Below, piece by piece: positions 1-45,402 of a stretch of DNA of 62,743 nucleotides (position 1 is the first letter of the stretch; every line of letters begins with the position of its first letter). The notes below the pieces were generated by a model. It did no database searches. It saw nothing but the letters and a program-made list of their open reading frames with translations, and was not told the origin of the DNA. Both the position numbers and the translations under genes were made by a program. The stretch is from an uncultured Verrucomicrobiales bacterium. GTDB taxonomy: Bacteria > Pseudomonadota > Alphaproteobacteria > Paracaedibacterales > CAIOTO01. The stretch covers positions 8,848-71,590 of the forward strand of contig CAYZJC010000005.1 of the NCBI GenBank assembly GCA_964478775.1, in the 5' to 3' direction.

Positions 1-2369
1 ATATATACAGGAATCGCAACTGGCACATAAACATAATTTTCAACTGTAGGTGCTTGTGGAGGCATCACGTTTTGTGTGGAGCAAGGCTGACAGTATTGAG
101 TGGTTATTTGTGGTGCAATAGATTGAGAAGGGGGTTGTATTGCAGTAACGATGGCCGTTGAGACAGGAGGGGCACTGTTCGGTGTTGACGCACTATCAAG
201 TGCTGGCGTATGGTCAAGCGATGGCACCTCAGTTTTTTCTTCAGCCATTCCCGCTGCATCTGAAAGCCTAGGCTTTGAGTCGGTTTCAAGGAATGCTGTT
301 TGCAAAATTTCCGTTGATGACCCTAAAGGTTGTGCACCATTTGGTGATTTTTTAGCAGAATTTTCTGCGTTTTGTGCTAAAGCCGTTTCCCTTAGTGTAG
401 TTTGTTCTAAGGGGGCTGGCTGTGTGTGAAGTGCTGCGTTGGCATTCTCCACAACTTCAGCTTCAACTGCAGCGTTAGGTTCAACGTTAGTTTTTTCAAC
501 TGATCCTTCGGTGATAGCCTCTGTTTGAACTTTCTCTTGCTCAAGGGTTTGGGCTACACCTTTTTTCTTATCCACTTTTTTTGCAGAGGAAGTTTTCTTG
601 GTTGTAATTGGATTGGGTACAGCTGGGAAGTGTTCAGCAATGACAATGTCAGGGGTTGCAGCATTTTGTATGGCCGCATTATCTGGTATTTGATTTAAAG
701 CTCTACTTTGCGCAACGGGTTGTGGGGTGGCTTTTTCCTTTTTTGGTGCAGGTGTAAGCTTTTCAACTTTATTTTTGTGAGTTGATGGCAGGGTTGATGT
801 CTTTTTCTTTTCAGCTTTTTTTTCTACAAGGGTAAAGTCTGACAATTCAATCTCATCTGCAAGGGTTGTAATACCACTCAGCTCACTTGTTGATGTCGGT
901 GTGCTGACGAGAGGGGGCTGTTCATCTGACGTATCGCTTGCTGTATTGCCCACTGGTACGTTTTCTTCATAAAGTGGTTTAATGTTTTTGGGGCTTTGCT
1001 TTTTCTTCTTTTTAACTGTCGATGAATGACTTTTAAGAGCTGGTTTTTCATCTTGTAGGCTCCTTAATAATTCGTCTTCTTTTTCTTTTGCAATTTTACG
1101 TTGCGCCATTAACTTAATGATTTGAATCTCTTTTTTCTCGTCAATGATATCATACAAATTGGTAAAGAAAGTGTCCCACAACATAAGTGCGTGCATAATC
1201 AAATTAAGGTAGTTTTCTTTATCGGGCATTCTTAATATGCCTATCTTTTCAATACATGCGGGAGCATTCGTCTTTGTTTTAGATCGTTGCTTGAGGGGGA
1301 TGTAAGTTAAAACGTCCTTAAGATCTTCCATAAAGTGAGAGGTGAATTTTTGTTCACTATCAGATGCGAATGTTTTAAATTCCTCTTCATTAAGGTGATT
1401 GGCATAAGTTGCAAACCAAGTGGGTAGTAGCTGGGTGGAAATATCTTTTTTAATTTCGTAAAGGAGGTGTGCTTTATTGCAAGCAATAATGGGGTCTTCA
1501 GGGTCAAACGTAGCTTCACAAAGTTCAGTAAATGCGCGATCAAAGCTGATATAACAAGCAATTTCTTCGTTCATATAGTTTGCTGTTTTTGACGGTAAAA
1601 TATTTTGGAAATATATATAGGCTGATTTTTCTCTTGGTGTTTTCCTTTCGCTAAAATGTGTTTGCAAAATTAATAAGGCATTCTTTTTGTGTTGAACCAA
1701 CATATTGGGTGACGCAATATTTACATGTAAAAATGCGGCCAAGATGTTTTCAAAACGGTTCAGCATTGATTCAAGTTCAGGCGTTTTAAACAACGGATTG
1801 CCGCAATAATTAAAAAAATCAGTCTTTAAAAATTCGCTTACGTCTTTACTTGTGACTAATATATCATGTGTATTTTGGGTTTGAAGATGCGCATGAAATA
1901 CAAATGTTTTTAATAGTGTTTTTAAAAAATCATAAAGGTCGAGGTAATATTCAAATTGAATATGATTTATATCTTTAACAAATACATTGTTCTTATCTGA
2001 AAAAACCTTCGTTAAAAAACTGTTGATAAAATTGTCGGTAAAGGGCTTCTCAAAGTAAATAAGGTTTAATAACGAAAAGGCTGGGTGGATTGTTATATGA
2101 TTGTTTGTGCACGTTTGCTTATGCGTGTGTAGGAGTTGCTGTATAATAGACAATTCATCTGCAGTAAGGGTGCAAGTTGGGTTGGTGTATTGCAAGTAAT
2201 GCGCAGCGCTTAATTTTTGTGAGGATGGGGGATTGTCTATAACGCAGTATGGAGTTGTTAAGGAAATGGGTGTTCGTGCTGTTTCCATTTCCATTGCAAG
2301 GGAGTGATGAGAATAAAATAAAAATAAAATAAATAAAAATATTTTGATTTTTTGGTAATAATGTTTCAT
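1..2369 (-). CDS. Large secreted hypothetical protein. The 5' end is complete and the 3' end lies beyond the window (>=789 codons). Helical-looking N-terminal part followed by a K/P/T/A-rich low-complexity tail.
   Basis: Absent from the supplied ORF track because it is truncated at the window edge. I checked every triplet of this minus-strand frame from 2369 down to position 3 and found no stop. The ATG is at 2369-2367 and the nearest upstream in-frame stop is at 2391-2393. The N-terminus MKHYYQKIKIFLFILFLFYSHHSLA|MEME looks like a Sec signal peptide. No family recognised. Confidence 0.65.
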   Translation of the reverse strand, partial: MKHYYQKIKIFLFILFLFYSHHSLAMEMETARTPISLTTPYCVIDNPPSSQKLSAAHYLQYTNPTCTLTADELSIIQQLLHTHKQTCTNNHITIHPAFSLLNLIYFEKPFTDNFINSFLTKVFSDKNNVFVKDINHIQFEYYLDLYDFLKTLLKTFVFHAHLQTQNTHDILVTSKDVSEFLKTDFFNYCGNPLFKTPELESMLNRFENILAAFLHVNIASPNMLVQHKKNALLILQTHFSERKTPREKSAYIYFQNILPSKTANYMNEEIACYISFDRAFTELCEATFDPEDPIIACNKAHLLYEIKKDISTQLLPTWFATYANHLNEEEFKTFASDSEQKFTSHFMEDLKDVLTYIPLKQRSKTKTNAPACIEKIGILRMPDKENYLNLIMHALMLWDTFFTNLYDIIDEKKEIQIIKLMAQRKIAKEKEDELLRSLQDEKPALKSHSSTVKKKKKQSPKNIKPLYEENVPVGNTASDTSDEQPPLVSTPTSTSELSGITTLADEIELSDFTLVEKKAEKKKTSTLPSTHKNKVEKLTPAPKKEKATPQPVAQSRALNQIPDNAAIQNAATPDIVIAEHFPAVPNPITTKKTSSAKKVDKKKGVAQTLEQEKVQTEAITEGSVEKTNVEPNAAVEAEVVENANAALHTQPAPLEQTTLRETALAQNAENSAKKSPNGAQPLGSSTEILQTAFLETDSKPRLSDAAGMAEEKTEVPSLDHTPALDSASTPNSAPPVSTAIVTAIQPPSQSIAPQITTQYCQPCSTQNVMPPQAPTVENYVYVPVAIPVY

Positions 2370-2527
2370 GCTGACAGGCCTAATTTGAATTTAATAATTT
2401 TTTTTAACGAAACAAATGGGCAATGTCAAACGAAATCGTGCTTTTATGCATTTTGTTTTGCGTTAAAGCCTTAGGTATTAATAACTTTCAAGGAGGGACG
2501 GCCTTACATCATTCTTACATTTTTACT

Positions 2528-3280
2528 TTACCTGTTCTTTTTCTTCTTTTTCTTTTTCTTCTTTTTCTCTTGTGCTTTTTGCGGTGAAATAGGGGTGCAT
2601 TTAGGGGCAGGCATGACGTATTCTTCCCCTAGGCAGATCGCTGTTTTAGAAGGTAAGTCATCGCCTTCAGGTTCTTCTATTAACCTGGTTGATAAGATGT
2701 ATTTCACTTGTGCCTCAACTTGTGCATCACGTTCATTTTCACCTTCAACGTACAATATAGCGGGTGGGTCAAATTCAGGTTCCATATACATCATCGTTTT
2801 GGGTGCTTCTTCTTGTTGATTCACTAACAAGGTTGCAGCTTCACGTTCGACATCTTGAATGAGTGTTGTAACACCAGCTTGCTCGGTATTATCCCCCTCT
2901 GCTTGTTGTCCATCAGTAGCCCTTGTTGAAAATTGTTCTTCCTTTTCTATGGCCAATACGACTGATGCTTCATTTTCTTGCGGTTCCGGGATAAGTGTCG
3001 TGATCTGAGTGGCTGGCACTGCACTGGGGTCTTCTTCTGTTTCATTTTCACCACTTTTCACCAATGTAGTCGGTTGAAAGACTGGTGTTATGAGGTTTAA
3101 AACTGATGACATAAAACTGCTTGGTTTATCGCCAGATGCGGTTTCAGAATCTATAGGTGCGGCAGGAGGAGGGGGCTCTTGCGCATGAGTGGTTGTTGAC
3201 AAACATAAAAAGGGCAAAACAAAAACAATTTTAATTAAAAACTTATATTTTTGTGGTTGCGTCATTTTAAAGATATACAT
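2528..3280 (-). CDS. Secreted acidic hypothetical protein with a C-terminal deca-lysine tail
   Basis: 250-aa ORF. The N-terminus KYKFLIKIVFVLPFLCLSTTTHA|QEPPP is signal-peptide-like. The mature part is E/D/T/P/Q-rich. The C-terminus is ...AQEKKKKKKKKKKNR, with 10 Lys encoded by alternating AAA/AAG. No family recognised. Confidence 0.55.
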   Translation of the reverse strand: MYIFKMTQPQKYKFLIKIVFVLPFLCLSTTTHAQEPPPPAAPIDSETASGDKPSSFMSSVLNLITPVFQPTTLVKSGENETEEDPSAVPATQITTLIPEPQENEASVVLAIEKEEQFSTRATDGQQAEGDNTEQAGVTTLIQDVEREAATLLVNQQEEAPKTMMYMEPEFDPPAILYVEGENERDAQVEAQVKYILSTRLIEEPEGDDLPSKTAICLGEEYVMPAPKCTPISPQKAQEKKKKKKKKKKNR

Positions 3281-3304
3281 AAAAGTTTCTTTCCGCGTGC
3301 AAAG

Positions 3305-3856
3305 TTACTGTAAGTCTGGTGATGGTTTATCATCCAATAATGTTGGGGCGTCAATTCCTTTAGGAGGCATAAACAAAACCATTGGTAAGTTGGGGTGGTA
3401 GTCATAGCTTGGCCCAGGTGGGTCAATAGTGATTGAAGGAAGGCCAGTCTGGTCGTACGGGTCATAGGCTTTTACAGTTGCCTGCACCTTAGCGGGCTTT
3501 GGCAATGGCTTTGGTAATGCTTGTGGTGTTTTAGGTGAAGCCGCTTTCGCAAGAACAGGTAGTGACGCAAGTGCTGCCTTTTTCTTCTGTTTTTCTTTTT
3601 TGGGTGCCAGCTTGCTTACCGACTTCACCATTTTCTTTGCCTGTTTCATAGGAGCCTTGGCTGCTTTTTTCAACTTCTTTGAAACGCTACCAATACCTTT
3701 TTTTTTCTTTTTTTTATTTTTTTTATCTGGATTACCTGTATCCGCTTTTTCATTAAGGCGTTGGTCATTATTAGCTGCATAAGACATAAAAGCTGTAAAT
3801 GTAAAACTTACAATAATGAAGAAGCTATATTTTTTTAACGTACCCAAAAAGCTCAT
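3305..3856 (-). CDS. Secreted Lys/Pro/Ala-rich (histone-H1-tail-like) hypothetical protein
   Basis: 183-aa ORF. The hydrophobic N-terminus is YSFFIIVSFTFTAFMSYA|ANND. It is followed by KKNKKKKKKG, KKLKKAAKAPMKQAKKMVK, APKKEKQKKKAAL and LPKPLPKPAK tracts, and a Pro/Asp/Tyr-rich C-terminus. No family recognised. Confidence 0.55.
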   Translation of the reverse strand: MSFLGTLKKYSFFIIVSFTFTAFMSYAANNDQRLNEKADTGNPDKKNKKKKKKGIGSVSKKLKKAAKAPMKQAKKMVKSVSKLAPKKEKQKKKAALASLPVLAKAASPKTPQALPKPLPKPAKVQATVKAYDPYDQTGLPSITIDPPGPSYDYHPNLPMVLFMPPKGIDAPTLLDDKPSPDLQ

Positions 3857-3877
3857 TTTTAAAAAGAACCATCCCTT

Positions 3878-4753
3878 TTATTGTTTGTGTGTATTTTGAT
3901 AAACTTGATTTTTCTTGATGTCATTCACTAAGCCAGCAAGAGAAGGTTTCTGTGGTGGTTGTGTCACATTTGCCTCGGGTTTTGGATCTTCTGCTTTTGG
4001 CGCAGGCGCAGGCGCAGCTGCTGGTTCATTTTTTTTCTTAGCTTTACCTGGTTTAGGCGTCTTATTTTCCTGATTGATATGCTTATCAAATTTTTCATTG
4101 TCTTTAGTTAGCGCGTCGAGTTTTTTATCTATCTCAGCAATATCTTTAATATTGCTTTCTCTGTCTTTCTTTTCGTCTGTTAATAACTTAATCAGCCCTT
4201 CACGTTCACTTTTACTCATTTCATAGACTTCTTTGAGTTGGTCTGTGACTTTGTTTAAGCTTTCAAGCAACCCTTGTCGTTTTTTGTTAAGAATAATCAA
4301 TATCTCCTCATTCTTTTTAAAATAGGCTTCTATAACATCTTTCCCGCTTTGCAGCTTAGCGGGGGGAGTTTCTTTTTCAGCATTCTTTTTAGGGGAAGGC
4401 TTGGTCGTCGTACTTTTCTTTAAATTCTTTTTAGCTTTTTTTGCGGGGGGTGAATCGGTGTGATTATTCTCTGAACTGTTTTCCCTGCCTCTTTTCACTG
4501 CTGCCTTTTTCGGTGTTGAGTTTTGAGTTTGTTCATCCTGAAATAAATTATCAAACATTGTAAATTCATCACTTTGTGCAATACAATCATTTCCAGTGAG
4601 GAATGTCATTGCCATTAGACAGCACCATAGAGATAGACCTTTTCTTTTATTATTGTTAAGTACCTCAACAGCAGTCATGTTGGCTTGATTTATAATTTGC
4701 ATATCCATTTTCTTCTTCATTCCTTTGCAGGGTTTCTTATTGCGTCCTCGCAC
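3878..4753 (-). CDS. Secreted Lys-rich coiled-coil hypothetical protein
   Basis: 291-aa ORF. The hydrophobic segment GLSLWCCLMAMTFLTGNDCIA|QSD follows a basic N-region; the start could be the internal MKKKMDM. It has a PPAKKAKKNLKK / PSPKK tract, a central heptad-like K/E/L-rich region, an APAPAPKAEDPKPE tract and the C-terminus ...PSLAGLVNDIKKNQVYQNTHKQ. Confidence 0.55.
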   Translation of the reverse strand: MRGRNKKPCKGMKKKMDMQIINQANMTAVEVLNNNKRKGLSLWCCLMAMTFLTGNDCIAQSDEFTMFDNLFQDEQTQNSTPKKAAVKRGRENSSENNHTDSPPAKKAKKNLKKSTTTKPSPKKNAEKETPPAKLQSGKDVIEAYFKKNEEILIILNKKRQGLLESLNKVTDQLKEVYEMSKSEREGLIKLLTDEKKDRESNIKDIAEIDKKLDALTKDNEKFDKHINQENKTPKPGKAKKKNEPAAAPAPAPKAEDPKPEANVTQPPQKPSLAGLVNDIKKNQVYQNTHKQ

Positions 4754-4758
4754 ACTTT

Positions 4759-5508
4759 TTATCTTTTACTAAACCAACCTGTTTTGGGTTGTGTTTGAGC
4801 TATCGTTTTATTTTGCTGAGTGCTTAAGTTCTTGTTGTTTTTTGCAACTGCATTTGCAGCAGCTTTTCTAGCACTATTATCTGACTTTTGTTGGTTTGTT
4901 AATTGCTTTTGTTTATTTGTATAAAATTTAAGTTCTTCTTTTTTTTGCCCCAACTCAGAACCTAATACCTTAATTTGATTTGCTAAATTAGTAATATCGT
5001 TATTTAACATGGAAATAATTTCATTGGCATTTTGCATTTGCTGCTGCATGGCATATTGGTCTTGTTGCATAAGTTCTTGCAGACGACCATTCGAATTTGG
5101 CCCCATGTTTTGCATGCCGTTATTGTAACCTTGGTTAAAATTTCCACCGCCTGGTGCGCCGTTGAAACCACCATTGGAGCCACCACCAAAGTTGTTATTA
5201 TTTTGGCCGAAGTTTCCACCACCGTTAAAGCCACCACCGCCTGGTGCGCCGCCGAAACCACCATTGGGGGCACCACCAAAGTTGTTATTGTTATTAAAGT
5301 TGTTGCTGGGGGGGGCAAAGCCGCCGCCGCCTGGTGCGCCGCCGAAACTGCCATTGGGGGCACCACCACCGCCATAGTTATTGCTTTGGCCATAGTTTCC
5401 ACCGCCTCCACCGCTGCTTCCACCACTAAAGCCACCAAATCTACTGCCGCCACTACAGTATGGTATAAGCAATGTCATTATAAGAAGGCATTTAAGTACA
5501 AAGTGCAT
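4759..5508 (-). CDS. Secreted Gly/Asn-rich (FG-dipeptide repeat) protein with a Q/N-rich coiled-coil C-terminus
   Basis: 249-aa ORF. The N-terminus is MHFVLKCLLIMTLLIPYCSGG. About 115 aa of G/N/F/A/P repeats follow (GGAPNGSFGGAPGGGGF...), then QELMQQDQYAMQQQMQNANEIISMLNNDITNLANQIKVLGSELGQKKEELK. No family recognised. Confidence 0.55.
   Translation of the reverse strand: MHFVLKCLLIMTLLIPYCSGGSRFGGFSGGSSGGGGGNYGQSNNYGGGGAPNGSFGGAPGGGGFAPPSNNFNNNNNFGGAPNGGFGGAPGGGGFNGGGNFGQNNNNFGGGSNGGFNGAPGGGNFNQGYNNGMQNMGPNSNGRLQELMQQDQYAMQQQMQNANEIISMLNNDITNLANQIKVLGSELGQKKEELKFYTNKQKQLTNQQKSDNSARKAAANAVAKNNKNLSTQQNKTIAQTQPKTGWFSKR
5147..5416 (-). repeat. Three imperfect tandem copies of a 90-bp (30-aa) unit inside the Gly/Asn-rich gene
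   Basis: The core cgcctggtgcgccgccgaaaccaccattgggggcaccacc recurs with an exact 90-bp period; ctggtgcgcc occurs at 5151, 5241 and 5331. The peptide units are roughly GGAPNG(S/G)FGGAPGGGGF-x13. Confidence 0.85.
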
Positions 5509-5797
5509 GTGTTGACCAATAACAATATATAGGAATCTTATAGCAATATTGTATCAACCTAAATCTTGCGAAAAGGTTAATTTAATTGAAAAAATATTTA
5601 AAACTAATGTTTTATGCTTTACCCATAGTCCTATGCCTATTTAAATTCATTTAAAGGAATAAAATTTTTCCTTCATAAAACAGGCCTTCTTGAAACAATT
5701 GCATTTTAACTACATTCACATGTAGAATGTAGCATAATAAAGTCCGTTTTTTATCGGGCAACTTAATAAACAAATTGCGAATACAAAGGAATGTTTT

Positions 5798-7099
5798 ATG
5801 CGCTTGTCTCACTATTTCTTACCAACTTTAAAAGAAACACCGGCAGAAGCACAAATCGCCTCACACCGCTTAATGCTGCGCGCTGGGCTTGTGAACCAAT
5901 GCGCATCTGGTTTATATTCATGGCTGCCTATGGGGCAACGCGTTTTAAAGAATATTGAAAACATTATTGAAAAAGAACAAGACGTTATTGGTTGTCATCG
6001 CGTGATTATGCCAACACTACAACCTGCAAGCTTGTGGATTGAAAGTGGCAGATACGAAGACTACGGCAAGGAAATGCTGCGTGTGAAAGACCGCCATGAC
6101 CGCGATTTATTGTTTGGCCCAACCAACGAAGAAGTGATTACTGATGTTGTCAGGCAATACATTAAAAGCTATCGCGACTTACCACAAACTTTATACCAAA
6201 TTACCTGGAAGTTCAGAGACGAAATCCGCCCACGCTTTGGTGTGATGAGAGGGCGTGAATTTTTGATGAAGGACGGCTATTCTTTTGATATTGACTACGA
6301 TTCAGCCAGGGCCACTTATAAAAAGATATTTGAAAGCTATATTAGAACCTTTGCAAAAATGGGTCTTGCTGCTATTCCTGTGCGGGCTGACTCTGGTGCT
6401 ATTGGTGGTGACCTTAGTCATGAATTTCAAATTATGGCCGAAACAGGCGAGAGCACCATTTACTATGATGGGGCGTATGATGACCTATCCACAAACGAAA
6501 AAACATTTGAAAGACTGCAAGACATTTATACTGCAGCTGATGAAATGCATGATGCAGATAATTGCCCAGTGCCACAAGACCGCTTAAAGTCTGCACGCGG
6601 CATTGAAGTGGGGCACATCTTTTATTTTGGGCAAAAGTATTCTAAAGCTATGAACCTTAAAGTCGTTGGGCCAGATAGCCAAAACATTATTCCAGAAATG
6701 GGCTCATATGGTATTGGGGTTTCACGTCTTGTGGGCGCAATTATTGAAGCCCACCATGATGACAATGGGATTATATGGCCGGAAGCTATCGCACCCTTTC
6801 AAGTGGGTCTCCTTCAATTGCAATTAGAAGACGAAGCTGTCGTAACCCTTTCGCAAGATATCTACAATCAGCTTAATCAAGCGGGAGTGAGTGTATTGTG
6901 GGACGATAGAAATGAAAGACCAGGTGCTAAATTTGCCAATATGGATCTTATCGGTCTTCCACATCAACTTATTATTGGTGCTAAGTCATTACAAGAAGGT
7001 AAAGTTGAATATAAAAATAGAAAGACGAATGAGCGAACCTTGTTGAACGTTTCAGATATTCCTGCATGGATTAATGAACGTGCAAAAGCTATAGCGTAG
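5798..7099 (+). CDS. proS: Prolyl-tRNA synthetase (short type without the INS editing domain)
   Basis: 433 aa. The N-terminus is [31 protein letters not shown]. Class-II motifs present: [25 protein letters not shown] and [16 protein letters not shown]. Confidence 0.95.
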
Positions 7100-7132
7100 T
7101 CTTTAATAGTAAGAATCAAAAATAGACATAAC

Positions 7133-7858
7133 ATGACACAATTTAAAAAACCTGATAAGGTCACAAAGCTCAACAGCAAGAAGAAGCGCACAAATTCGTC
7201 AAGGCAATGGCTGCTAAGGCAGCTCAATGACCCGTTTGTTGCTGCCGCAAAAAAAGAAGGCTACCGTTCCAGGGCTGCTTTTAAGCTTGTTGAAATTCAA
7301 GACAAATATAAATTAATGCGACGCGCAAGCCGCGTGCTAGACCTTGGGGCGGCACCTGGGGGTTGGTGTCAGGTTGCTATTAAAATTGTTGGCGATAGCG
7401 GCCATGTCATTGGGGTTGACTTAACAGATATTGAACCCATAGCAGGTGTGCACTTTATTCATGGTGACTTTTTAGATGAAGGCATTCAACAACAAATCAT
7501 CACAGCGTTTGATGGTAATAAAGCCCACGTCATTATGAGTGATATGGCAGCAAAAGCCTGCGGTATTCCTGAAGTTGACCACTTAAGGCTTATGGATTTG
7601 CTTGAAAATTCTTACCTGTTTGCGCTAGATCACCTAGAAGCAGGGGGGCACTTTGTCGCCAAAGTATTGCGTGGGGGGACAGAACACAATTTACTAAAGC
7701 AACTCAAGTCAAGTTTTGCAAAAGTGCACCACTTTAAACCAGATTCGAGTAGGTCAGAGTCAGCAGAGCTTTATATGGTTGCACTTGGTTACAAACCAAG
7801 CAAAAATAAAACAATGCGTGCAGATAACCTAACCCAAGCAGATATTGAAAACGCTTAA
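7133..7858 (+). CDS. rlmE: 23S rRNA (uridine-2'-O)-methyltransferase RlmE/FtsJ
   Basis: SSRQWLLRQLNDPFV..GYRSRAAFKLVEI, the SAM-binding motif LDLGAAPGGWCQV, and VIMSDMAAKACG. Lies immediately downstream of proS. Confidence 0.9.
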   Translation: MTQFKKPDKVTKLNSKKKRTNSSRQWLLRQLNDPFVAAAKKEGYRSRAAFKLVEIQDKYKLMRRASRVLDLGAAPGGWCQVAIKIVGDSGHVIGVDLTDIEPIAGVHFIHGDFLDEGIQQQIITAFDGNKAHVIMSDMAAKACGIPEVDHLRLMDLLENSYLFALDHLEAGGHFVAKVLRGGTEHNLLKQLKSSFAKVHHFKPDSSRSESAELYMVALGYKPSKNKTMRADNLTQADIENA

Positions 7859-7870
7859 GGAGCCAAGCAG

Positions 7871-8788
7871 ATGACAATTATTGATGGCGTATTAATTGGT
7901 ATGACATTTATTTCAGCCGTGCTGGGTTTTATGCGCGGCCTCACACGTGAAGTTTTAAGCTTGGCGTCTTGGGGCTGTAGTGCGTTAATCACCTATACGT
8001 GCTGGACGTACGCACAAGCTATTGCCCAGCAGTTCGTAGAAAATAAAATGATGGCAGATACCACAGCAATTGTGGCCATGTTTGTATTACTCCTCATTTG
8101 TTTTTATTTAATTAGTCATGTATTGACCAGCGTGATACGTGACAGTATGCTGGGCGGACTTGATAGATCCCTCGGGTTTTTGTTTGGTATTTTCCGTGCT
8201 TGTCTTATTGTCTGTGGTTTTTACATATCAGCAACACTCTTTATTGCTTTAGAAGATATGCCCGAGATGATTCGATCAAGTCGTTTTATACCCTTCATTC
8301 AAAACAGTAGTCAAGCTGTTCTTTCTGTCGTGCCGCACAATATCACCGCCTATATTAGCGAACAACAACAAAAGGTGCATTTAAAAAAGGTCAATAATAA
8401 CCCGAACGCTGGAATGAGTAGCCACAATGGCCAACAGGTCATAGAAAATGGTATAGATGCCTTAAGTCAAAAAGCCGCTGAAATTGCCAACAATGCTGTT
8501 CAAAATTCAGTTAAAGCCGCCATTCATGAACGCATGTCAGAACAACAAATTCAAAATGCAAAAGCGTATGCCCAACAACAAGCCGACAACCTTGCAAGAC
8601 TGCAACCCAAAGTTGTAGCCCCGCAAGCCCAACAAATGGATGAAACCGGTGTCACGGCAAAACAAGAAAAAGCCTTAGATAAGTTTTTAAACACAACATC
8701 TATTGATGAGCCTACGGAGCAAGTTTCAACACCAGAAACAGCAGATGCTGCTTCGGCTCAGACAGCCGCATCGGCCCCCACCATGTAA
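7871..8788 (+). CDS. cvpA: CvpA-family membrane protein with a long Q/A-rich C-terminal extension
   Basis: The N-terminal multi-TM core (IIDGVLIGMTFISAVLGFMRGLTREVLSLASW...) is typical of the colicin V production protein family. The last ~140 aa are low-complexity Q/A/N-rich. Confidence 0.75.
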   Translation: MTIIDGVLIGMTFISAVLGFMRGLTREVLSLASWGCSALITYTCWTYAQAIAQQFVENKMMADTTAIVAMFVLLLICFYLISHVLTSVIRDSMLGGLDRSLGFLFGIFRACLIVCGFYISATLFIALEDMPEMIRSSRFIPFIQNSSQAVLSVVPHNITAYISEQQQKVHLKKVNNNPNAGMSSHNGQQVIENGIDALSQKAAEIANNAVQNSVKAAIHERMSEQQIQNAKAYAQQQADNLARLQPKVVAPQAQQMDETGVTAKQEKALDKFLNTTSIDEPTEQVSTPETADAASAQTAASAPTM

Positions 8789-9032: not shown

Positions 9033-12000
9033 ATGAAAAAAGTTACCGCTCACTCTATTGCGCTTGCAATTTTACTTACCTCTTCAACCCTTGTTAATAT
9101 TGCCGTTTCTGCAGTTCTTTCATCTCCTGCAGCTCCTGGCGGTGATGGACCATCTGTGATTCCTTCTTCCTCACCACAAGCTGCTGCCCCTGCAACGTCA
9201 GTGGCTCCTGTGGCGGCAACTCCAGCAGCTACTCCAGCAGCTACTCCAGAAAATAAAGAAGAAGCTAAAAAAGAAGCATCTGGTGGGCTTAATATTTCTG
9301 TATGTCAATTAAAAGAGTCAGGCATGTTAGGCAGAGCATTAGGGGAAGGTTACGGTAAAGACTGTGTAACGCAAGCTAGAAAAGACGCTCTCCTTAATGC
9401 CATAAACAACATGGATGATGAAAACACACGCGAAGAAGTTAGAAAACTATTTGCAGTCAAACCATGGTATCGTGTCTTCTTACCAGCGCCATTTTCAATG
9501 GATGATTATAGTCAAATAGCTAATGTATTTAAAGTGGCAAGCGCACAACCACTCATTCAAGGTCTGCAAGGTATTAAAGCCGCTGCTGATTCATATAAAC
9601 AGTCAGCGAATGTTTCTGACCATAACACCAATGCTGCAAATGCAGAGGCCAATAAAACCGCTGATGATGTTAATACCCGCCTTAAAACAGCAGAACACAT
9701 TCTTGAAAACGAAGAAAAACCAGTATTAAACTTTACTAAAACTGATGTAGGTAGTGCACTTCACTATTTAAAATTATTTTTCATGAACAAAACTTTGTCT
9801 GAGAAATCTATTTTTGATGAGAGTTTAGGTTCAAAAGCCCACATAGAAGACTTTTTAAAGAACTACAATAAAGAGAGTGATGAAGCATCTTATAAAAAGA
9901 ATTTAAAATATGCATATATACAAACAACGTATGATGCTTATAATGCTGCATGGAAAAAAGTCGTGTTAACTGCGGCTACATTGTCTTTATATTCATCACA
10001 ATTAAAAGATTTAGAAACTGCCCTTACAGACTTAGACGAAGACGTGATTGATGAAATTATTGAAAAAGTCAATGGCATTGAGTTGATTAAGAAAGATATA
10101 GGTAAAATTGAGCCACGTCGTTTTGCAGAAATCATTTCTAAAATCAATGACGAGCTTTCCTTTGATAAGGGTAAGTATCACAACAGAATTATATATATAG
10201 ATGATAGAGAAGTCACAACAGAACCTGAACAAAAGAGAATTTTAATTAAAATTAAACAAGAGACTTTTGAATACGTTAACAAAAATATAAATAGTCAAGA
10301 AATTAAAGACATTCAAGAGCAAATTGAAGAAGTTGTTTCAAAGGTTGGGGAATTGCATCCACGTTATAGAAAAGGGCGCGTTCACCACGTCAAACTGAGT
10401 GCACAATTATTAGATGCTATTATCACGACAGATAAAGCACAAGTGAACCAGGCGTCAGAAAATAATATTTTAGAAAATGAACCGCTAAAAGAAAAAGTTT
10501 CAAACCGTAAACTTGACAATTTGCAGGCTAACATTAAGGCAGTTCTTGCTTTTGCAAAAGAATGTGCGCACCTTGACGTGAAACCTATGTGGTTACCCAG
10601 TATTGTGTCTGCAATGCTTGACCACGATGTGGATGCAAGCCAAATAGAAAAAACAAAGCATGCGGAATTTATTACCCTGCTTGCAAACAAGTTAAGCAAT
10701 ATGCGCGTGCCAGCAGAAAATAACGCTGCAAATAAAAAATCACCATTAGTCCATGGCCAAAAGGATGCAAAAAAAGTGATGGACGCAATTGTTCAACATG
10801 AATCATTCAAGGCTGAACCTTATATATTGCTTGAACTTGTCAATGGTGCCATAGACATAAAAGACCTTCTTCCTGCTGATGTAATAGACAATGATGATGA
10901 AGTCAAAGCAACTGCAGAAAAGCCAGTGTCTGAGCTTGACAAAGTTATTGAGATTATCAATAAAACAAGCAAAGACAACATTAGACCAGCCCTTAACAAA
11001 ATTTTAGAAATTAAATATGCCGAACAACAAGGAAAAGCATGGGCTAAAACAAAAAGAATCGCCGCAAAGTTTTGGAGATGGTTAAAGCGCGATAAAGGCA
11101 TGGTAACCTGGATGCAAAAAAACCACGGTATTGTTGATGGTATGAATAATAGGGCTGCAGCTGTCTACCCCGCTATGAAAGAAGGAATGAATGCTGCCGC
11201 AATTAAATTTAATGAACTTAAACAAAAACGTCAGGCTAATGCACAAGCAAGTGCTGTAGGGGCAGATGATGAAGGCAGTGCAGTTGAGATGAGTTCTCCA
11301 AAGGTTGCGCACACACAACAAGCGGGAGTGGCTCAGCAGGATGAGCAAGAGCTGTCGCTAGCGCAAAAAAAGCAAGTCTTAGAAGATTTACTGAACAGTA
11401 ACGCAAACAGGAATGAAGGCCCACAGCAACCTCAAAATCAACCTGAAGTGGTTGTAGCAAGTGGACCCAGTGTATCTTCACCCACACGTTCTGCTTTATC
11501 TGATGCGGTTCTCAATCAAATTAAAACGCGCCAAGCTATTCACAATGCCAGCATTGAATCTTTAGAGAATCACGTAGCTGACAATCAACCACAAAATAGT
11601 GCTGAACATCCAAGAGGCACAATAGATAATAATGTCCTAGAGGAACTGAAAGCTAAGGCTCAAAAAGATCGATCAGATAAAATACAAAAGCTTGAAGAAA
11701 AAAGGCTCAAACAACAAGCATCATCAAATGTTAATCCACAAGCAAAAGAATTGGCTGCTAACGCAAAAGAATTGGAAGAAAAAAGGCAGAAAAAGCTTAA
11801 AGAAGCGGAAGTATTAGAAAGTCTCCAACGCCAATTAGCACAACTTCAACAGGCACAAAATAGCCAAGTAGATAGTGTAGGTGGTGACCGTCTACCCTCA
11901 CAAGCAGAGTTGGTAACTCAAATCAGTGAACTTGAGAAGCAGCAACTTAATGCCAGAGTGTTAAATGATCTAAGACCAAAAGATGAAAAAGAAGCTGTTA

Positions 12001-12458
12001 AACCGTCCGCTAATATACAAGAAATATACAATAATCCGGAAGTTAAAAAAGACGTGTTAGAAATGACCAATAGGATCAGTAGCATCAAAGAAAGCGATGC
12101 AAGCTGGAAGGAACGTGAAAAAAGGAACGCGGAAATAAAAAAGCTAAAAGAAAACTCAGAGCAAGTGTCACCCCAACTTCAAGACCAACAACAGGAGGCC
12201 CCATCAGTAAATCAAGCTAATCAAATAGCTGCAACCACAGCCGATAACAATTTGGTAAGCAACCAACAAGAGGCTGTAAATGACCAACAGACTATGCCAC
12301 AAGTTTCAGAGATGGAAAAAAAACGCCAAGAGGCAGAGAAGAATCAACTAGAAGCCCAAATTCAAGCCCTAGAACCAACTGACCAAGCATCAACCCAACC
12401 CAACCTTCCACAAGATCCCCACCTTCCAACAGGCAACACACCAATTAACAGTCAGTAA
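9033..12458 (+). CDS. Very large (1141 aa) secreted hypothetical protein: helical N-terminal two-thirds and a Q/E/K-rich coiled-coil C-terminal third
   Basis: The SD AGGAAG precedes the ATG. The signal-like N-terminus is MKKVTAHSIALAILLTSSTLVNIAVSA. An Ala/Pro/Thr linker follows (ATPAATPAATPE). The C-terminus contains long E/K/Q heptad-like stretches. No family recognised. Confidence 0.6.
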   Translation: MKKVTAHSIALAILLTSSTLVNIAVSAVLSSPAAPGGDGPSVIPSSSPQAAAPATSVAPVAATPAATPAATPENKEEAKKEASGGLNISVCQLKESGMLGRALGEGYGKDCVTQARKDALLNAINNMDDENTREEVRKLFAVKPWYRVFLPAPFSMDDYSQIANVFKVASAQPLIQGLQGIKAAADSYKQSANVSDHNTNAANAEANKTADDVNTRLKTAEHILENEEKPVLNFTKTDVGSALHYLKLFFMNKTLSEKSIFDESLGSKAHIEDFLKNYNKESDEASYKKNLKYAYIQTTYDAYNAAWKKVVLTAATLSLYSSQLKDLETALTDLDEDVIDEIIEKVNGIELIKKDIGKIEPRRFAEIISKINDELSFDKGKYHNRIIYIDDREVTTEPEQKRILIKIKQETFEYVNKNINSQEIKDIQEQIEEVVSKVGELHPRYRKGRVHHVKLSAQLLDAIITTDKAQVNQASENNILENEPLKEKVSNRKLDNLQANIKAVLAFAKECAHLDVKPMWLPSIVSAMLDHDVDASQIEKTKHAEFITLLANKLSNMRVPAENNAANKKSPLVHGQKDAKKVMDAIVQHESFKAEPYILLELVNGAIDIKDLLPADVIDNDDEVKATAEKPVSELDKVIEIINKTSKDNIRPALNKILEIKYAEQQGKAWAKTKRIAAKFWRWLKRDKGMVTWMQKNHGIVDGMNNRAAAVYPAMKEGMNAAAIKFNELKQKRQANAQASAVGADDEGSAVEMSSPKVAHTQQAGVAQQDEQELSLAQKKQVLEDLLNSNANRNEGPQQPQNQPEVVVASGPSVSSPTRSALSDAVLNQIKTRQAIHNASIESLENHVADNQPQNSAEHPRGTIDNNVLEELKAKAQKDRSDKIQKLEEKRLKQQASSNVNPQAKELAANAKELEEKRQKKLKEAEVLESLQRQLAQLQQAQNSQVDSVGGDRLPSQAELVTQISELEKQQLNARVLNDLRPKDEKEAVKPSANIQEIYNNPEVKKDVLEMTNRISSIKESDASWKEREKRNAEIKKLKENSEQVSPQLQDQQQEAPSVNQANQIAATTADNNLVSNQQEAVNDQQTMPQVSEMEKKRQEAEKNQLEAQIQALEPTDQASTQPNLPQDPHLPTGNTPINSQ

Positions 12459-15582: not shown

Positions 15583-16173
15583 TCAGGCTGGAAAAGCAGC
15601 GTCATCTGCCAGTTCATTGGCAGTATCTTCTTCGTACGCATCAGCTCCATCATTAACTTGGTTTAAAAAATTCATCATGTCGGGGGACAGTAGAAAATTT
15701 AAATTCAGTGCAGCTGTATGATGAAAACCGGGGAAAGGAGGAAGCTCAGTTAAATGTGCAAGGCCTATATTCGTAGGGGAAGGTGTGTTGTCAAATAGAC
15801 TTCTGAGATTTATTGGTTGAGGTCTTGAAATTTCACTGTCGGTATGTGTATTCAAAGGAAGCAAACAGCGGCTTCTTTTAGACACTGGGGTGTGGAATGG
15901 GTCATCATTATTGTTAACGGTAGGTGAAGCTTCTGCATCAAAATCTAACCTCATTGTGCCTGTTGCGTCAAAATCTTCTCCACTTCTTGACCTTTTGGCT
16001 TTTCTTGCAAGCTGTGGAGGCGTAAAATTTTGGGCATTAAGCTGTGGTGTTGGTGTATTAAACTCAGCTACCTGTGTATTTTGCGCTACGTTTTCCATTG
16101 CATTTACAGACGTAAATCCAGTAACGGCAAGCATTAAGCCCAAAGCATATTTTGTATTTTGTAATAAGTTCAT
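15583..16173 (-). CDS. Small secreted hypothetical protein (196 aa)
   Basis: The signal-like N-terminus is MNLLQNTKYALGLMLAVTGFTSVNA|MENV. It has basic patches (RKAKRSRS, SKRSR) and an acidic C-terminus. No family recognised. An antisense ORF (15890..16228) is considered spurious. Confidence 0.5.
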   Translation of the reverse strand: MNLLQNTKYALGLMLAVTGFTSVNAMENVAQNTQVAEFNTPTPQLNAQNFTPPQLARKAKRSRSGEDFDATGTMRLDFDAEASPTVNNNDDPFHTPVSKRSRCLLPLNTHTDSEISRPQPINLRSLFDNTPSPTNIGLAHLTELPPFPGFHHTAALNLNFLLSPDMMNFLNQVNDGADAYEEDTANELADDAAFPA

Positions 16174-16922: not shown

Positions 16923-17774
16923 ATGGTGAATAACTTTTTAGGTTTTATTTTTTTGGTACGTGTATTTTTATTTTTGCTATCTGTTTTTTTATTAACGGAA
17001 AGCTTTGCCCCAAATGTGTGTCTTGCATCACCCAATAAAACACGCAAAAGCTTTCTTAGCAGGCAAGAAAAATGGGTTGACTGCAGTTTGAAATTTTGCA
17101 GTATCGAACATATTCAACAAGGTCTAGATAGTGGCTTTAGTATTAATGCGAAAAGTAAATGCGGTACGACCTTGCTGATGAGCGCAATTTGTTGCAATAA
17201 TACTGAAGTTGCAGATTTTATATTAAATAAAGGGGCAGATTTTACCCTCGTTGACTTGGAAGGAAGCACCACCCTTCATTGGTGTGCCTTATTTGGCTGT
17301 CTAGAAATTTCAAAGCGTTTACTCGCTATGGGTGCGAACCCAAATCAATCAACCCCGTTAGGAACAACACCCTTAATGCAAACCGTAATTTACAACAAGC
17401 CACATCTCACCAGACAGTTACTTGCGCAACCAGGAATTGATGTAAACGCCTATAATGTGTGTGCAAGCACAGCACTTAGTCAAGCCGTTGCATACAATCA
17501 TATTGAAATAGTAGCGTTGTTATTAGAACATCCAGGTACGCACTATTACCTAACAGACAATCAGCACACGGCAGTTCATGAGTATGCGAAGACTGCTGAA
17601 ATGAAAGGTATATTAAGGCTTCATCGACTTAAACCCTTTTTAGCGTTTTTAAAGGTGTCACAAATTCAAACCCCTTACACGCAAGTGATACTTGGAGAAG
17701 AGATTAAGCTAATGCACACAACAACAATTTTAGAAAACCCAGACCTTACACGTTATGTATGTGGCTTTCTATGA
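16923..17774 (+). CDS. Ankyrin-repeat protein with N-terminal signal-like sequence (ANK-1)
   Basis: The hydrophobic N-terminus is FLGFIFLVRVFLFLLSVFLLTESFA. There are 4-5 ANK repeats (GTTLLMSAICCNNTEVADFILNKGAD, GSTTLHWCALFGCLEISKRLLAMGANPN, GTTPLMQTVIYNK..., STALSQAVAYNHIEIVALLLEHPG). The C-terminal tail is ...KPFLAFLKVSQIQTP...ENPDLTRYVCGFL. Confidence 0.85.
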   Translation: MVNNFLGFIFLVRVFLFLLSVFLLTESFAPNVCLASPNKTRKSFLSRQEKWVDCSLKFCSIEHIQQGLDSGFSINAKSKCGTTLLMSAICCNNTEVADFILNKGADFTLVDLEGSTTLHWCALFGCLEISKRLLAMGANPNQSTPLGTTPLMQTVIYNKPHLTRQLLAQPGIDVNAYNVCASTALSQAVAYNHIEIVALLLEHPGTHYYLTDNQHTAVHEYAKTAEMKGILRLHRLKPFLAFLKVSQIQTPYTQVILGEEIKLMHTTTILENPDLTRYVCGFL

Positions 17775-17807: not shown

Positions 17808-18641
17808 ATGAATTTTATACGGCTCAAAAGTCTTGCACTACAAGCTCTTTTAATATTACTTGTAAGTTGCCTATATACTGGTGCAGGTCATGCTATGATA
17901 CGACTTGCACTGCAATCCGCTTATTTTGAAAGAACTTGGATTGATCAACACTTTGAGTCATGTAGTATTGAGTCAGCGAAGAAATATATAGATAATGGCA
18001 ATTGCATTAATTTGCAAAGTCCAGCTGGCACAACATTCTTAATGCAGGCAATTATTCATCATCAAATTGAAACTGTTGATTTTATTTTAGATAATGAACC
18101 AGATGTTAATCTTGCCAACAAGATTGGTGGTACAGCTTTGCATTATGCAGCGCAAGCAGGCCTTGAAGAAGTTGCACAAAGACTATTGCAGATGGGGGCA
18201 AACCCTAATGCGAAAAGCTGGATGGGGTGGACCCCTTTAATGTCTGCAGAAACGTATGAGCAAATTAATGTCCTTCGACAATTGCTAATGCACCCACAAG
18301 TGGATGTCAACGCTCAAGACTGTAGTGGCTATACAGCTCTAATGTATGCTGCGTTAAGCAATAAATGTGAGATTGCTGCAATACTACTTAACCACCCGTC
18401 AATTGATATTCATATTGTGGATGATTTAGCGTGTATGGTCGACCTCAGTATTCTTACACCTGAAATGAGGGGGGAATTTCGGTTTCACACCTTAAGTCCC
18501 TTTTTAAAATTTTTACAAAGTTCACAAATTCAAACGCCGACAACGTCCATGATGCCTGCGCAAGTAGAAAGAATCCCTCATGTGATAAAAGCTCTAGAAA
18601 ACCGAGACCTCACACGTTTTTTGTGTGAATTTATTGGCTAG
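17808..18641 (+). CDS. Ankyrin-repeat protein with N-terminal signal-like sequence (ANK-2; tandem paralogue of ANK-1)
   Basis: The SD AGGA precedes the ATG. The N-terminus is LKSLALQALLILLVSCLYTGAGHA. ANK repeats include GTTFLMQAIIHHQIETVDFILDNEPD and GGTALHYAAQAGLEEVAQRLLQMGANPN. It is colinear with ANK-1 throughout (about 40-45% identity by eye). The tail is ...SPFLKFLQSSQIQTP...ENRDLTRFLCEFIG. Confidence 0.85.
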   Translation: MNFIRLKSLALQALLILLVSCLYTGAGHAMIRLALQSAYFERTWIDQHFESCSIESAKKYIDNGNCINLQSPAGTTFLMQAIIHHQIETVDFILDNEPDVNLANKIGGTALHYAAQAGLEEVAQRLLQMGANPNAKSWMGWTPLMSAETYEQINVLRQLLMHPQVDVNAQDCSGYTALMYAALSNKCEIAAILLNHPSIDIHIVDDLACMVDLSILTPEMRGEFRFHTLSPFLKFLQSSQIQTPTTSMMPAQVERIPHVIKALENRDLTRFLCEFIG

Positions 18642-38918: not shown

Positions 38919-39746
38919 ATGTTTATCTTAAATAAGAATGTATTTATTAATGTGTGTTTTTTGTGTTGCATCTGCGTCACTGAAACGATCGCAGAGCCGT
39001 CGCCCCAATTGGTAGAACAAGAAAGGTTAGATACAGCCCTTGTTGTTGCGCTTCATTATTCTGACCAATATGGTGCCATTGAATTATTAGACGCTGGTGC
39101 CAATCCAAATGTTGCTGACAAATCAAACAAATCAGCTTTGTGTATTGCCCTTGTTAAAAAACTAGAAGATGCAGCCATTTTGTTAATTGAAAAAGGGGCT
39201 GACTTAAATGTATGCAGTTGGAATGGGACACCTGCTTTATGGCTGTCTCTGCGGTTTGGCACCCCAAAGGTGGCCCTTTCCATGATTGAACATGGTGCTG
39301 ATCCGAATGCTGTTTATATGTCTGATTCCATATTGTACACCAGCATTCTGCACCAGTGGCCACGTGTGGCGATATCTTTGTTGGAAGCAGGTGCGAACCC
39401 CAATATTGGTGAAGACCCACTTTATATGCATTCTCCTCTTATGATAGCAGGACTATTCCAACAACATGAAGTCATCAAAAAATTAATTGATTGCGGGGCT
39501 AACTTAAATGCCACAACGGCACAGGGCCTTACATTATGGGACATCGTTGATGAACACACAGCAAAATTTATTGTGCGTTATCGTCAAAAGGCAGCGACTA
39601 TGCCCTTTTTAATGGCGCTTCATGGGTCAGGCTACCAAGGGCCACGTAGCTTGACGCCAGATCCAAGCCCACCTCACACAGTTGAAAGCAAAGATGCTGT
39701 GTTGTACTGTAAGGAATTAGTTCGCTACATAGCAAAGTACCTGTGA
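38919..39746 (+). CDS. Ankyrin-repeat protein with N-terminal signal-like sequence (ANK-3)
   Basis: The SD GAGTGAGGA precedes the ATG. The N-terminus is VFINVCFLCCICVTETIA|EPS. ANK repeats include SALCIALVKKLEDAAILLIEKGADLN, GTPALWLSLRFGTPKVALSMIEHGADPN and SPLMIAGLFQQHEVIKKLIDCGANLN. The tail is ...MPFLMALHG...KELVRYIAKYL. Confidence 0.85.
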   Translation: MFILNKNVFINVCFLCCICVTETIAEPSPQLVEQERLDTALVVALHYSDQYGAIELLDAGANPNVADKSNKSALCIALVKKLEDAAILLIEKGADLNVCSWNGTPALWLSLRFGTPKVALSMIEHGADPNAVYMSDSILYTSILHQWPRVAISLLEAGANPNIGEDPLYMHSPLMIAGLFQQHEVIKKLIDCGANLNATTAQGLTLWDIVDEHTAKFIVRYRQKAATMPFLMALHGSGYQGPRSLTPDPSPPHTVESKDAVLYCKELVRYIAKYL

Positions 39747-43077: not shown

Positions 43078-44217
43078 ATGAGATTAAAAAGAAATGTTCT
43101 TGCATTGGCTGTTTTATTAACAAGCTTTATTGCAGATAATGGCTTTGCCGTAAATAATCACAACCAAATTGTCAGACCAAATCAATGGTTTGAGGCAGCA
43201 GTGTCTGGTGACACGGACACAATGAAAAGGGCTATTTCACAAAGGTTTGATATTAATATGCGTCACCAGAAGCTTGATCAAACTGCTTTATCTATGGCCA
43301 TTGCAGAAAATAAGGTTGAGGTAGTGAAACTATTGCTCAATCATAATGCGAGTTTAGTGGAGCTGGACTCAGCTAACCTTACTGCTTTCAGTAGATTCAT
43401 GAAGTATTCACCTAACTGCTCTGAAATTGCAAGCCTCTTGTGTGCAAAAGGTGCAGATCTGGCAGAGCTTAATATGATTAGTCCTTATCGCAGAACACGT
43501 TTGTATGACATGCTTAGTTATTCTAAAGAACACACAAAAACATTAGATATATTACTATCACAAGAAAATAGCAAAATAATAAATCTTGATGAAAAAGATA
43601 TATTGGAGCTTTCTTTGCTGCATAGGGCAGCATTGTCTGGACACCATAACATTGTAAAGCTACTCATTGAACGTGGCGCAAATGTAATGACAAAATCAAA
43701 AACAGGTGAGACACTTTTATTTTTCACGACAAATATTTCAAATCAAAACGAGAAGCAGCACGATTATCATGGTTTGATTATTAACAATGATAATCGAGCA
43801 GAAAAAGTTTCACACTTGCATGAAATCATAAATGCTTATATTGATAATGGTGTTGACATTAATCACCAAAACCAGTGGGGCTTCACTGCTGCAATGTGGG
43901 CAATGGCTTACTGTAAAACTGCCTCAAAATCTAATAACCTGGCCACTGTTAAAGGCTGGTATAACATTGCATGGTACTTAATTAAACACCCGAAGTTTAA
44001 TGTCTGGCTTCAAGACAACAAGCATAGAACAATCTTAGAATACGCCTCCATTTCTGTTGTGATGAGAAAAGAAATTCTTTGGAAAATGTTAATCATCAAT
44101 GAAGGAAGTGCTTTACAGCAACAGCACACAACTGCACCGTCACAAAAGCGCACAACAGCACAGTATGAAGTTTTTAAAAATTCTCCATTGGTTCGTAAGA
44201 TCGTTGATTTTTTATAA
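43078..44217 (+). CDS. Ankyrin-repeat protein with N-terminal signal-like sequence (ANK-4)
   Basis: The SD AGGAAA precedes the ATG. The N-terminus is MRLKRNVLALAVLLTSFIADNGFA|VNN. ANK repeats include QTALSMAIAENKVEVVKLLLNHNASL, LSLLHRAALSGHHNIVKLLIERGANV and FTAAMWAMAY. The tail ends ...NSPLVRKIVDFL. Confidence 0.8.
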   Translation: MRLKRNVLALAVLLTSFIADNGFAVNNHNQIVRPNQWFEAAVSGDTDTMKRAISQRFDINMRHQKLDQTALSMAIAENKVEVVKLLLNHNASLVELDSANLTAFSRFMKYSPNCSEIASLLCAKGADLAELNMISPYRRTRLYDMLSYSKEHTKTLDILLSQENSKIINLDEKDILELSLLHRAALSGHHNIVKLLIERGANVMTKSKTGETLLFFTTNISNQNEKQHDYHGLIINNDNRAEKVSHLHEIINAYIDNGVDINHQNQWGFTAAMWAMAYCKTASKSNNLATVKGWYNIAWYLIKHPKFNVWLQDNKHRTILEYASISVVMRKEILWKMLIINEGSALQQQHTTAPSQKRTTAQYEVFKNSPLVRKIVDFL

Positions 44218-45306: not shown

Positions 45307-45402
45307 AAAAACTCCTTTTGGTATGAACATGACACTATTAAAAACAAAGACCCTAAAACTGTCGTAGCTTTAAGGTCTGTGTCAATTAATTTTAATTAAA
45401 TT

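Follow-up and report, generated by a model that had tools for sequence, protein, structure and literature searches.

Two described systems are close enough to the locus reported here to serve as comparisons. RARP-1 of Rickettsia has a Sec signal, a disordered region and ankyrin repeats; it was initially taken for a secreted effector but turned out to be periplasmic, and it supports growth and invasion. The infectious form of Holospora obtusa stores periplasmic proteins (PRP1/63-kDa, 89-kDa and 5.4-kDa) and releases them to its host when it invades; one of them, PRP1, binds weakly to host nuclear DNA. Type VI secretion has been proposed in a review as the most credible route in this bacterial group. 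The present locus occupies positions 1..5508 of contig segment CAYZJC010000005.1 (the 62.7-kb stretch analyzed here, termed the window) and consists of five consecutive minus-strand open reading frames (ORFs), g1 to g5. The reading favored here, which is given a probability of about 0.5, is that g5 to g2 form a lineage-restricted operon, with g1 alongside, and that the products are Sec-exported, disordered coiled-coil proteins of the envelope or surface of a Holosporales-like symbiont.

An ORF check reproduces the five co-directional genes that an earlier note on this DNA had listed. The first, g1 (1..2369), runs off the window edge and has 789 visible codons; g2 (2528..3280) encodes 250 amino acids (aa), g3 (3305..3856) 183 aa and g5 (4759..5508) 249 aa. 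The g4 ORF spans 3878..4753 from a GTG codon, but an ATG at 4720 or 4708 is the likelier translation start because of the position of the orthologue start and a conserved AAGGA box. The gene would then be located at 3878..4720 and its product would be about 276–280 aa in length. The gap between g5 and g4 is 5 bp with the GTG start at 4753 and 38–50 bp with the ATG start. The other gaps are 21 bp (g4–g3), 24 bp (g3–g2) and 158 bp (g2–g1).

Codon usage was scored as log-odds, with 39 other window genes as the training set. The five genes score 0.26–0.35 bits/codon in their named frames, compared with 0.10–0.39 for the other window genes, and the five alternative frames score -0.70 to +0.04, i.e., approximately zero or below. 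Codon usage on a par with that of housekeeping genes, and found in the named frames only, identifies g1–g5 as native protein-coding genes and not chance ORFs. Two ORFs inside g5 (5032..5532 on the plus strand and 5004..5453 on the minus strand) were rejected as shadows of GGN-rich repeats; neither frame scores above about zero, compared with 0.35 for the g5 frame.

The block is also found in a second organism. A Logan contig from SRR11646522 (L082) is 2,393 bp in length and is collinear with the window, with 76% nucleotide identity. Its gene order is g5 (partial), g4, g3 and g2 (partial), as in the window, and its gaps are 53, 20 and 24 bp compared with 38, 21 and 24 bp here (with the g4 start at 4720). 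Order and two of the three spacings are thus kept, which agrees with the original description of the block as operon-like. Synteny was found in this one relative only; a tblastn search of the five proteins against 80 proS loci from related and distant alphaproteobacteria gave no match, and the closest relatives by prolyl-tRNA synthetase (ProRS, 75–76% identity) carry different genes upstream of proS. Another Logan contig (L081) has an identical copy of the first 330 codons of g1.

The arrangement suggests that g5-g4-g3-g2 would be transcribed as one unit, with g1 adjacent and probably under its own promoter. The neighboring gene proS (5798..7099) is divergent from g5, and the 289 bp intergenic region between the two (5509..5797) is the probable site of the promoter of the g5–g2 unit. 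This placement follows from the gene arrangement, because the region itself gave only weak consensus matches. The minus-strand spacer between g2 and g1 (2370..2527, 158 bp) has a perfect TTGACA (2424..2429), then 17 nt, then TAAAAA, which is a possible separate promoter for g1. The spacer shows no terminator-like hairpin and no significant structure (fold z-score -0.28), and a terminator scan with shuffled controls found no terminator between g2 and g1 or within the g5–g2 block. Promoter and terminator scans of the region gave matches at the level of the shuffled controls.

Comparison of the window with L082 reveals a mosaic of conservation. The ratio dN/dS (ω) was calculated by the Nei-Gojobori method from this single pair, in which dS is 0.6–1.0. 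Identity is 89% in g5 (142 aligned codons, dN/dS 0.07), 73% in g3 (orthologue P0003, dN/dS 0.21), 70% in the first 149 codons of g2 (dN/dS 0.29) and 59% in g4 (dN/dS 0.30). Values of 0.07–0.30 show that g2–g5 are functional genes. Within the proteins, the g5 heptad region and tail (residues 136–249) are 90% identical (ω 0.066), the g3 C-terminal module 91% (ω 0.10) and the g4 helix, compared with P0004, 88% (ω 0.08). The K-rich linkers overall are 34–59% identical (ω 0.23–0.40); the g3 linker is 59% identical, and the g4 linkers are 34–49% identical with ω of about 0.4. The Lys content of the g3 linker is 30 vs 31% and that of g4 linker 1 is 19 vs 25%, and the net positive charge of the linkers is retained despite sequence divergence. 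K-runs occur at equivalent positions in the g3 and g4 orthologues. In this one pairwise comparison, the pattern is that of functional modular proteins with predicted disordered spacers that are constrained in composition.

Each of the five proteins has exactly one hydrophobic segment, which is N-terminal and has basic residues before it. Signal-like N-termini were judged by a rule-based scan (hydrophobicity, residues at -3/-1 and no further hydrophobic segment) and by eye. By these rules g1–g4 display the generic Sec/SPase I properties, i.e., a basic n-region, an uncharged h-region and small residues at -3/-1. The SPase I-like sites, with the slash marking the putative cleavage point, are SLA/M in g1 (N-terminus at 2295..2369, residues 1–25), THA/Q in g2 (3182..3280), SYA/A in g3 (3776..3856) and CIA/Q in g4, where an N-terminal extension and the hydrophobic segment together occupy 4577..4720. 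In g5 the hydrophobic N-terminus (5452..5508) is followed by an ambiguous site, LIPYCSGG, which is not a canonical lipobox. The Sec-type signal-like N-terminus that had been proposed for each protein is thus supported by the scan, with the reservation on the g5 cleavage site. In the orthologues the cleavage motifs AHA/Q (g2), SYA/T (g3) and ANA/K (g4) are retained while the signal sequences diverge. The products of g1–g5 are probably Sec-exported.

The g5 protein consists, after its N-terminus, of a nearly uncharged Gly/Asn/Phe region of 116 aa (residues 20–135, positions 5104..5451) and a Q/N-rich heptad region with a basic tail (residues 136–249, positions 4762..5103; heptads at about residues 145–209). 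Residues 20–135 are 41% Gly and 25% Asn+Gln and have a single charged residue. There are six FG dipeptides, not the approximately eight first reported, and five GF. A 90-bp tandem repeat (5144..5368, 2.5 copies, 80%) is present within this region.

In g4, a K-rich disordered linker (linker 1, 4355..4576) precedes a single 95-residue helix with a heptad pattern (residues 126–220, positions 4061..4345); a K/P/A linker (3947..4060) connects this long helix to a short C-terminal helix (3881..3946). The protein contains the tract SPPAKKAKKNLKK. An AlphaFold2 (AF2) model based on the two-sequence alignment has predicted local distance difference test (pLDDT) values of 95–98 in the long helix and < 50 in the linkers. 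Heptad patterns are restricted to g4 and g5 among the five proteins.

The g3 linker (3479..3775) is 30% Lys and contains DKKNKKKKKKG and LPKPLPKPAK; the C-terminal 57 aa (3308..3478) form a conserved, Pro-rich module. The codons for the Lys runs of g3 (3697..3728) create long homopolymeric stretches of 8, 8 and 9 A, at which slippage could occur. The g2 body is acidic, with a mature isoelectric point of 4.5 and two Cys close to the C-terminus, and it ends in a K10 tail, EKKKKKKKKKKNR (2531..2569). In the tail-coding segment (2535..2580) AAA and AAG codons alternate, such that long A runs are avoided. All K-rich tracts quoted in the earlier note, and the acidic protein ending in K10, are present in g2, g3 and g4. 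Net charges are about -17 (g2), +21 (g3), +11 (g4) and +9 (g5) and are kept in the orthologues where comparable.

In g1, a helix-rich stretch of about 425 aa without repeats (1020..2294) is followed by at least 339 aa of disordered sequence rich in T/P/A/S/K/E (3..1019). An AF2 single-sequence model of the g1 N-domain has a pLDDT of 36, which is too low for use. Mutual comparison shows that g1–g5 are not paralogous to one another or to any other ORF of the window.

The share of each protein in low-entropy windows is 75% for g5, 55% for g3, 35% for g4, 21% for g1 (whole protein, with the low complexity in its C-terminal part) and 12% for g2. The term extreme low complexity, which had been applied to all five, is appropriate for g5 and g3 and partly so for g4 and the C-terminal part of g1, but barely for g2. 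A signal-like N-terminus is found in 16 of the 48 ORFs of the window by the rule-based scan, and these include all four ankyrin genes. Combined with at least 20% low complexity, it is found in four of the 48, namely g1, g3, g4 and g5, compared with 20 of 1164 ORFs in the 80 comparison loci under the same heuristic. With this loose heuristic, the clustering of signal-bearing low-complexity ORFs is far above the comparison background.

Searches of Pfam and NCBIfam at E values up to 1 place none of the five proteins in a family and show only sub-threshold coiled-coil and low-complexity noise. Nothing of note was found in PHROGs, and searches of PDB sequences gave nothing meaningful, whether a single sequence or a two-sequence profile was the query. 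There is no match to g1 in 5.8 billion proteins, and none to its residues 1–470 in 1.84 billion representatives (exhaustive HMMER) or in JGI metagenomes. The worst low-complexity parts of the g2–g5 queries were removed before searching; the concatenated, de-biased queries g2+g3 and g4+g5 returned self matches (g2 and g3) and two proteins of one Logan contig only. The g4 alignment has no match in JGI metagenomes. The g3 alignment has none in IMG/VR, a weak test in that the search was seeded on poly-K patterns. Both g2 (as P0001) and g3 are already recorded in the 5.8-billion-protein collection, and g1, g4 and g5 were not returned, although identical sequences should have been retrieved by the searches; these three may be unannotated, differently started or withheld in the record. 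The earlier statement that no family is recognizable holds across all these collections. On the basis of the searches, the families of g2–g5 are known from two organisms only and are new at the sequence level.

In the favored reading, each product would enter the Sec pathway via its N-terminal signal peptide, with an uncleaved anchor possible in g4 or g5, and would function extracytoplasmically, either in the periplasm or on the cell surface. In a diderm bacterium, the default destination of a protein with a Sec signal peptide is the periplasm, not a host. Each protein would combine a short, strongly conserved interaction module with fast-evolving disordered segments that are constrained in composition. 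In g4 the putative module is the 95-residue helix and in g3 the Pro-rich C-terminus, and both proteins would have polybasic disordered segments. In g5 the putative module is the heptad region with its basic tail, next to an uncharged, Gly/Asn/Phe-rich disordered segment, whereas the disordered segment of g2 would be acidic and carry the K10 tail. The helices may oligomerize into coiled coils, and the charged segments may bind polyanions or one another, e.g., lipopolysaccharide, peptidoglycan-associated material or the acidic g2 protein. The predicted outcome of such complex formation is an extracytoplasmic scaffold, spacer or coat.

Several points weigh against this reading. The rule-based signal scan is loose and also flags some cytoplasmic proteins, the g5 cleavage site is ambiguous and the N-region of g4 is unusually long. 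The selection estimate comes from one pair of sequences with dS of 0.6–1.0. In addition, g1 may be unrelated to the other four genes, and joint function or interaction of the five proteins is presumed. The envelope location is assigned by default from Sec biology, and no envelope-protein domain was found in Pfam or NCBIfam.

The genomic setting is that of a host-associated alphaproteobacterium. The window ProRS is 75–76% identical to that of two uncultured alphaproteobacterial metagenome-assembled genomes (MAGs) and 69% identical to that of a Candidatus Finniella MAG, and because of these identities the lineage appears to be Holosporales/Paracaedibacter-like. Neighbors in the window include proS, rlmE, cvpA, mutL, ankyrin genes, ATP synthase, an MCP gene, flgK and fliW, along with ordinary housekeeping genes. 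No secretion apparatus, autotransporter, tol-pal or exbBD genes are present within the 62.7-kb window, and there is no ExbB, ExbD or MotA family match among the neighbors. As the earlier note had remarked, ankyrin proteins are encoded nearby: four ankyrin-repeat genes are located on the plus strand at 16923..17774, 17808..18641, 38919..39746 and 43078..44217 (Pfam Ank families, E 1e-13 to 1e-26). All four start with signal-peptide-like N-termini, which suggests that their products are Sec-exported and either stay in the periplasm, as RARP-1 does, or are secreted by a two-step route. The genome has 39% G+C, a composition at which Lys runs are cheap, and other ORFans of the window also carry Lys-rich tracts.

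Exported ORFans seem to make up a high share of the window ORFs, as judged by the same heuristic. An ORFan of 1141 aa at 9033..12458 (plus strand), 3.5 kb from the g1–g5 array, begins with a signal-like segment, contains a PAATPAATPAATP tract, is Q-rich and heptad-like in its C-terminal half and has no Pfam match; it is another predicted exported, partly low-complexity protein. Further signal-bearing ORFs with no Pfam match are at 45403..49932 (minus strand, 1509 aa), 41326..42897 (plus strand, 523 aa), 44362..45330 (minus strand, 322 aa) and 15583..16173 (minus strand, 196 aa). The CvpA protein (7871..8788, plus strand) has a Colicin_V domain at residues 4–146 only; beyond it, about 160 aa form an extension rich in Q/A/S. 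In one of the MAGs with 75% ProRS identity to the window (L002), an unrelated 250-aa protein encoded at 6475..7227 on the minus strand, 3 kb upstream of proS, has a signal peptide and G/S/M/Q/N-rich repeats (SMMGSMLSGGT... and QQGAWSNQNGQQQ...). Secreted repeat proteins near proS may be a habit of the lineage. ARAGORN reports a 93-nt tRNA-Stop (anticodon tta) at 52619..52711 (plus strand) inside flgK (51084..52952); it is probably a false positive, as Rfam gives no gathering-score confirmation.

The alternative that survives best is that the products are host-directed effectors, as the earlier note proposed, and it is considered possible but doubtful. After Sec export the proteins would be released from the periplasm or surface by a second step, by vesicles or by a Holospora-like discharge, and would bind host polyanions or membranes by means of their polybasic tracts and coiled coils. 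The organism looks host-associated, with its four ankyrin genes, many ORFans and a ProRS nearest to those of uncultured Finniella-like MAGs. Taxonomic restriction, fast-evolving linkers and coiled coils are typical effector traits, and the Holospora periplasmic proteins, including the DNA-binding PRP1, do reach the host. Release of the g1–g5 products into a host is thus a possibility. However, no secretion system or autotransporter domain is encoded beside the block, nothing ties the block to the type VI route favored in the review, and RARP-1 demonstrates that a design of signal peptide plus disorder can be periplasmic. The conserved modules, with ω of about 0.07–0.10, display strong purifying selection and not an arms-race pattern. 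Type VI substrates are not known to carry Sec signal peptides as a rule. The effector proposal is derived from composition and gained support from none of the tests, and the four ankyrin proteins are signal-bearing as well.

A secreted matrix, coacervate or functional amyloid, in which the acidic g2, the basic g3 and g4 and the prion-like g5 proteins co-assemble outside the cell into a gel, adhesive or fiber, is unlikely. Opposite net charges are present within one putative operon and are conserved in the orthologues where comparable, and the G/N-rich, uncharged g5 tract with its aromatic residues resembles amyloid-prone or prion-like sequence. The argument is again one of composition, however; no curli, Fap, chaplin or other amyloid family was matched, no dedicated outer-membrane export gene is nearby, and no test favored the condensate or matrix system that had been suggested. 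A bolder combination of these ideas is similarly improbable: the g5–g2 products, i.e., disordered proteins of opposite charge and the prion-like Gly/Asn/Phe protein, would self-assemble into an extracytoplasmic material that long coiled coils hold together and that is stored in the periplasm or at the surface and discharged into the host, where the polybasic parts bind nucleic acids or chromatin. A protist symbiont would then possess a bacterial effector system of the condensate type that depends on Sec.

Nucleus- or chromatin-directed proteins, or mimics of FG-nucleoporins, are very unlikely. Here the K-runs would act as nuclear localization signals (NLS) or histone H1-like DNA binders and the Gly/Asn/Phe region of g5 would engage FG meshworks. 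The K-runs do recur at equivalent positions in the g3 and g4 orthologues, the g5 tract is almost without charge like cohesive FG domains, and PRP1 of Holospora is a precedent for a nuclear fate. The likeness of the tracts to NLS and H1 sequences is nevertheless compositional, Lys-rich tracts are common in low-G+C genomes and in other ORFans of the window, and no nucleoporin, histone or high mobility group (HMG) family was matched in Pfam or NCBIfam. A linker-histone or Hc1 domain is likewise not found in g1–g5 in these two databases, and the N-terminal export signals argue against a histone- or Hc1-like role in the nucleoid. FG-nucleoporins have many FxFG, GLFG or PSFG motifs in polar uncharged linkers, extend over hundreds of residues and possess an anchoring domain. 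The g5 region, which has six FG in 116 residues, in GGF and NFGG contexts, and which arose partly by a recent 90-bp tandem duplication, does not conform to this, and the resemblance first noted is not sustained.

Least probable of all are divergent TolA, TonB, Pal-associated or Lpp-like spacers anchored in the inner membrane with K/P/A linkers crossing the periplasm: the architecture fits (N-terminal hydrophobic segment, Lys/Pro-rich linker, small g3 C-terminal module and long g4 helix), but TonB_C, TolA, OmpA/Pal, Skp, LysM and SPOR domains are not found in Pfam or NCBIfam, no PDB sequence was matched, the genes adjoin proS, rlmE and cvpA and not tol-pal or exbBD, and a restriction to two organisms is at odds with Tol/Ton proteins that are universal in the group.

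The envelope or surface reading of g1–g5 is of a familiar kind, in that taxonomically restricted, signal-bearing disordered or coiled-coil ORFans are common in obligate intracellular bacteria. The block is slightly above routine because of its conserved four-gene arrangement, complementary charges, prion-like Gly/Asn/Phe domain and clean selection mosaic. If this reading is correct, the locus would be a compact, conserved and tractable example of how intracellular protist symbionts build lineage-specific envelope or host-interface structures from disordered proteins with patterned charge and attached short coiled-coil modules. The mosaic of conservation marks the first targets for mutation, i.e., the modules with ω of about 0.07–0.10 as opposed to linkers that keep composition only. 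At present the value of the block is mainly that of a well-delimited candidate set.

In comparison with described systems, TolA and TonB resemble these proteins in their hydrophobic N-terminal segment, in linkers rich in Lys, Pro and Ala and in a small module at the C-terminus, but their defining C-terminal domains are missing in g1–g5 and the taxonomic range here is extremely narrow. Neither TonB_C nor TonB_2 matches any of the five proteins in Pfam or NCBIfam, and no PDB chain is matched by a profile built from g3 and its orthologue. For TolA domain III there is no TolA or Tol-Pal family match, the corresponding two-sequence profile of g4 likewise retrieves no PDB chain and there are no tol-pal genes nearby; the mundane explanation offered in the earlier note thus fails as a claim of TolA, TonB or Pal membership.

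In curli CsgA and similar amyloid subunits, Gly/Asn-rich sequence comes after a signal peptide, and the genes belong to operons for exported proteins. The g5 protein resembles CsgA in its predicted signal peptide, Gly/Asn-rich sequence and putative exported-protein operon. It differs in that there is no Curlin_rpt or Fap match in Pfam, no CsgG- or FapF-like gene is nearby, and g5 has a conserved heptad-repeat C-terminal half that is absent from amyloid subunits.

The Holospora proteins belong to the same broad group (Holosporales/Holosporineae), are exported to the periplasm and are the nearest precedent for the idea of a host nucleus as target. No homology was detected in the searches made, which did not include a direct comparison with the Holospora proteins. 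An infectious form or a nuclear niche would be a supposition for the present organism, and the window ProRS points to Paracaedibacter- or Finniella-like MAGs and not to Holospora. RARP-1 is similar in its general design, with an N-terminal Sec signal, a long disordered region and an extracytoplasmic role in an obligate intracellular alphaproteobacterium. The sequences are not similar, and the ankyrin repeats of RARP-1 have no counterpart in g1–g5 by Pfam. RARP-1 is a single gene found throughout its genus, whereas a similar design appears here in a block of four or five genes.

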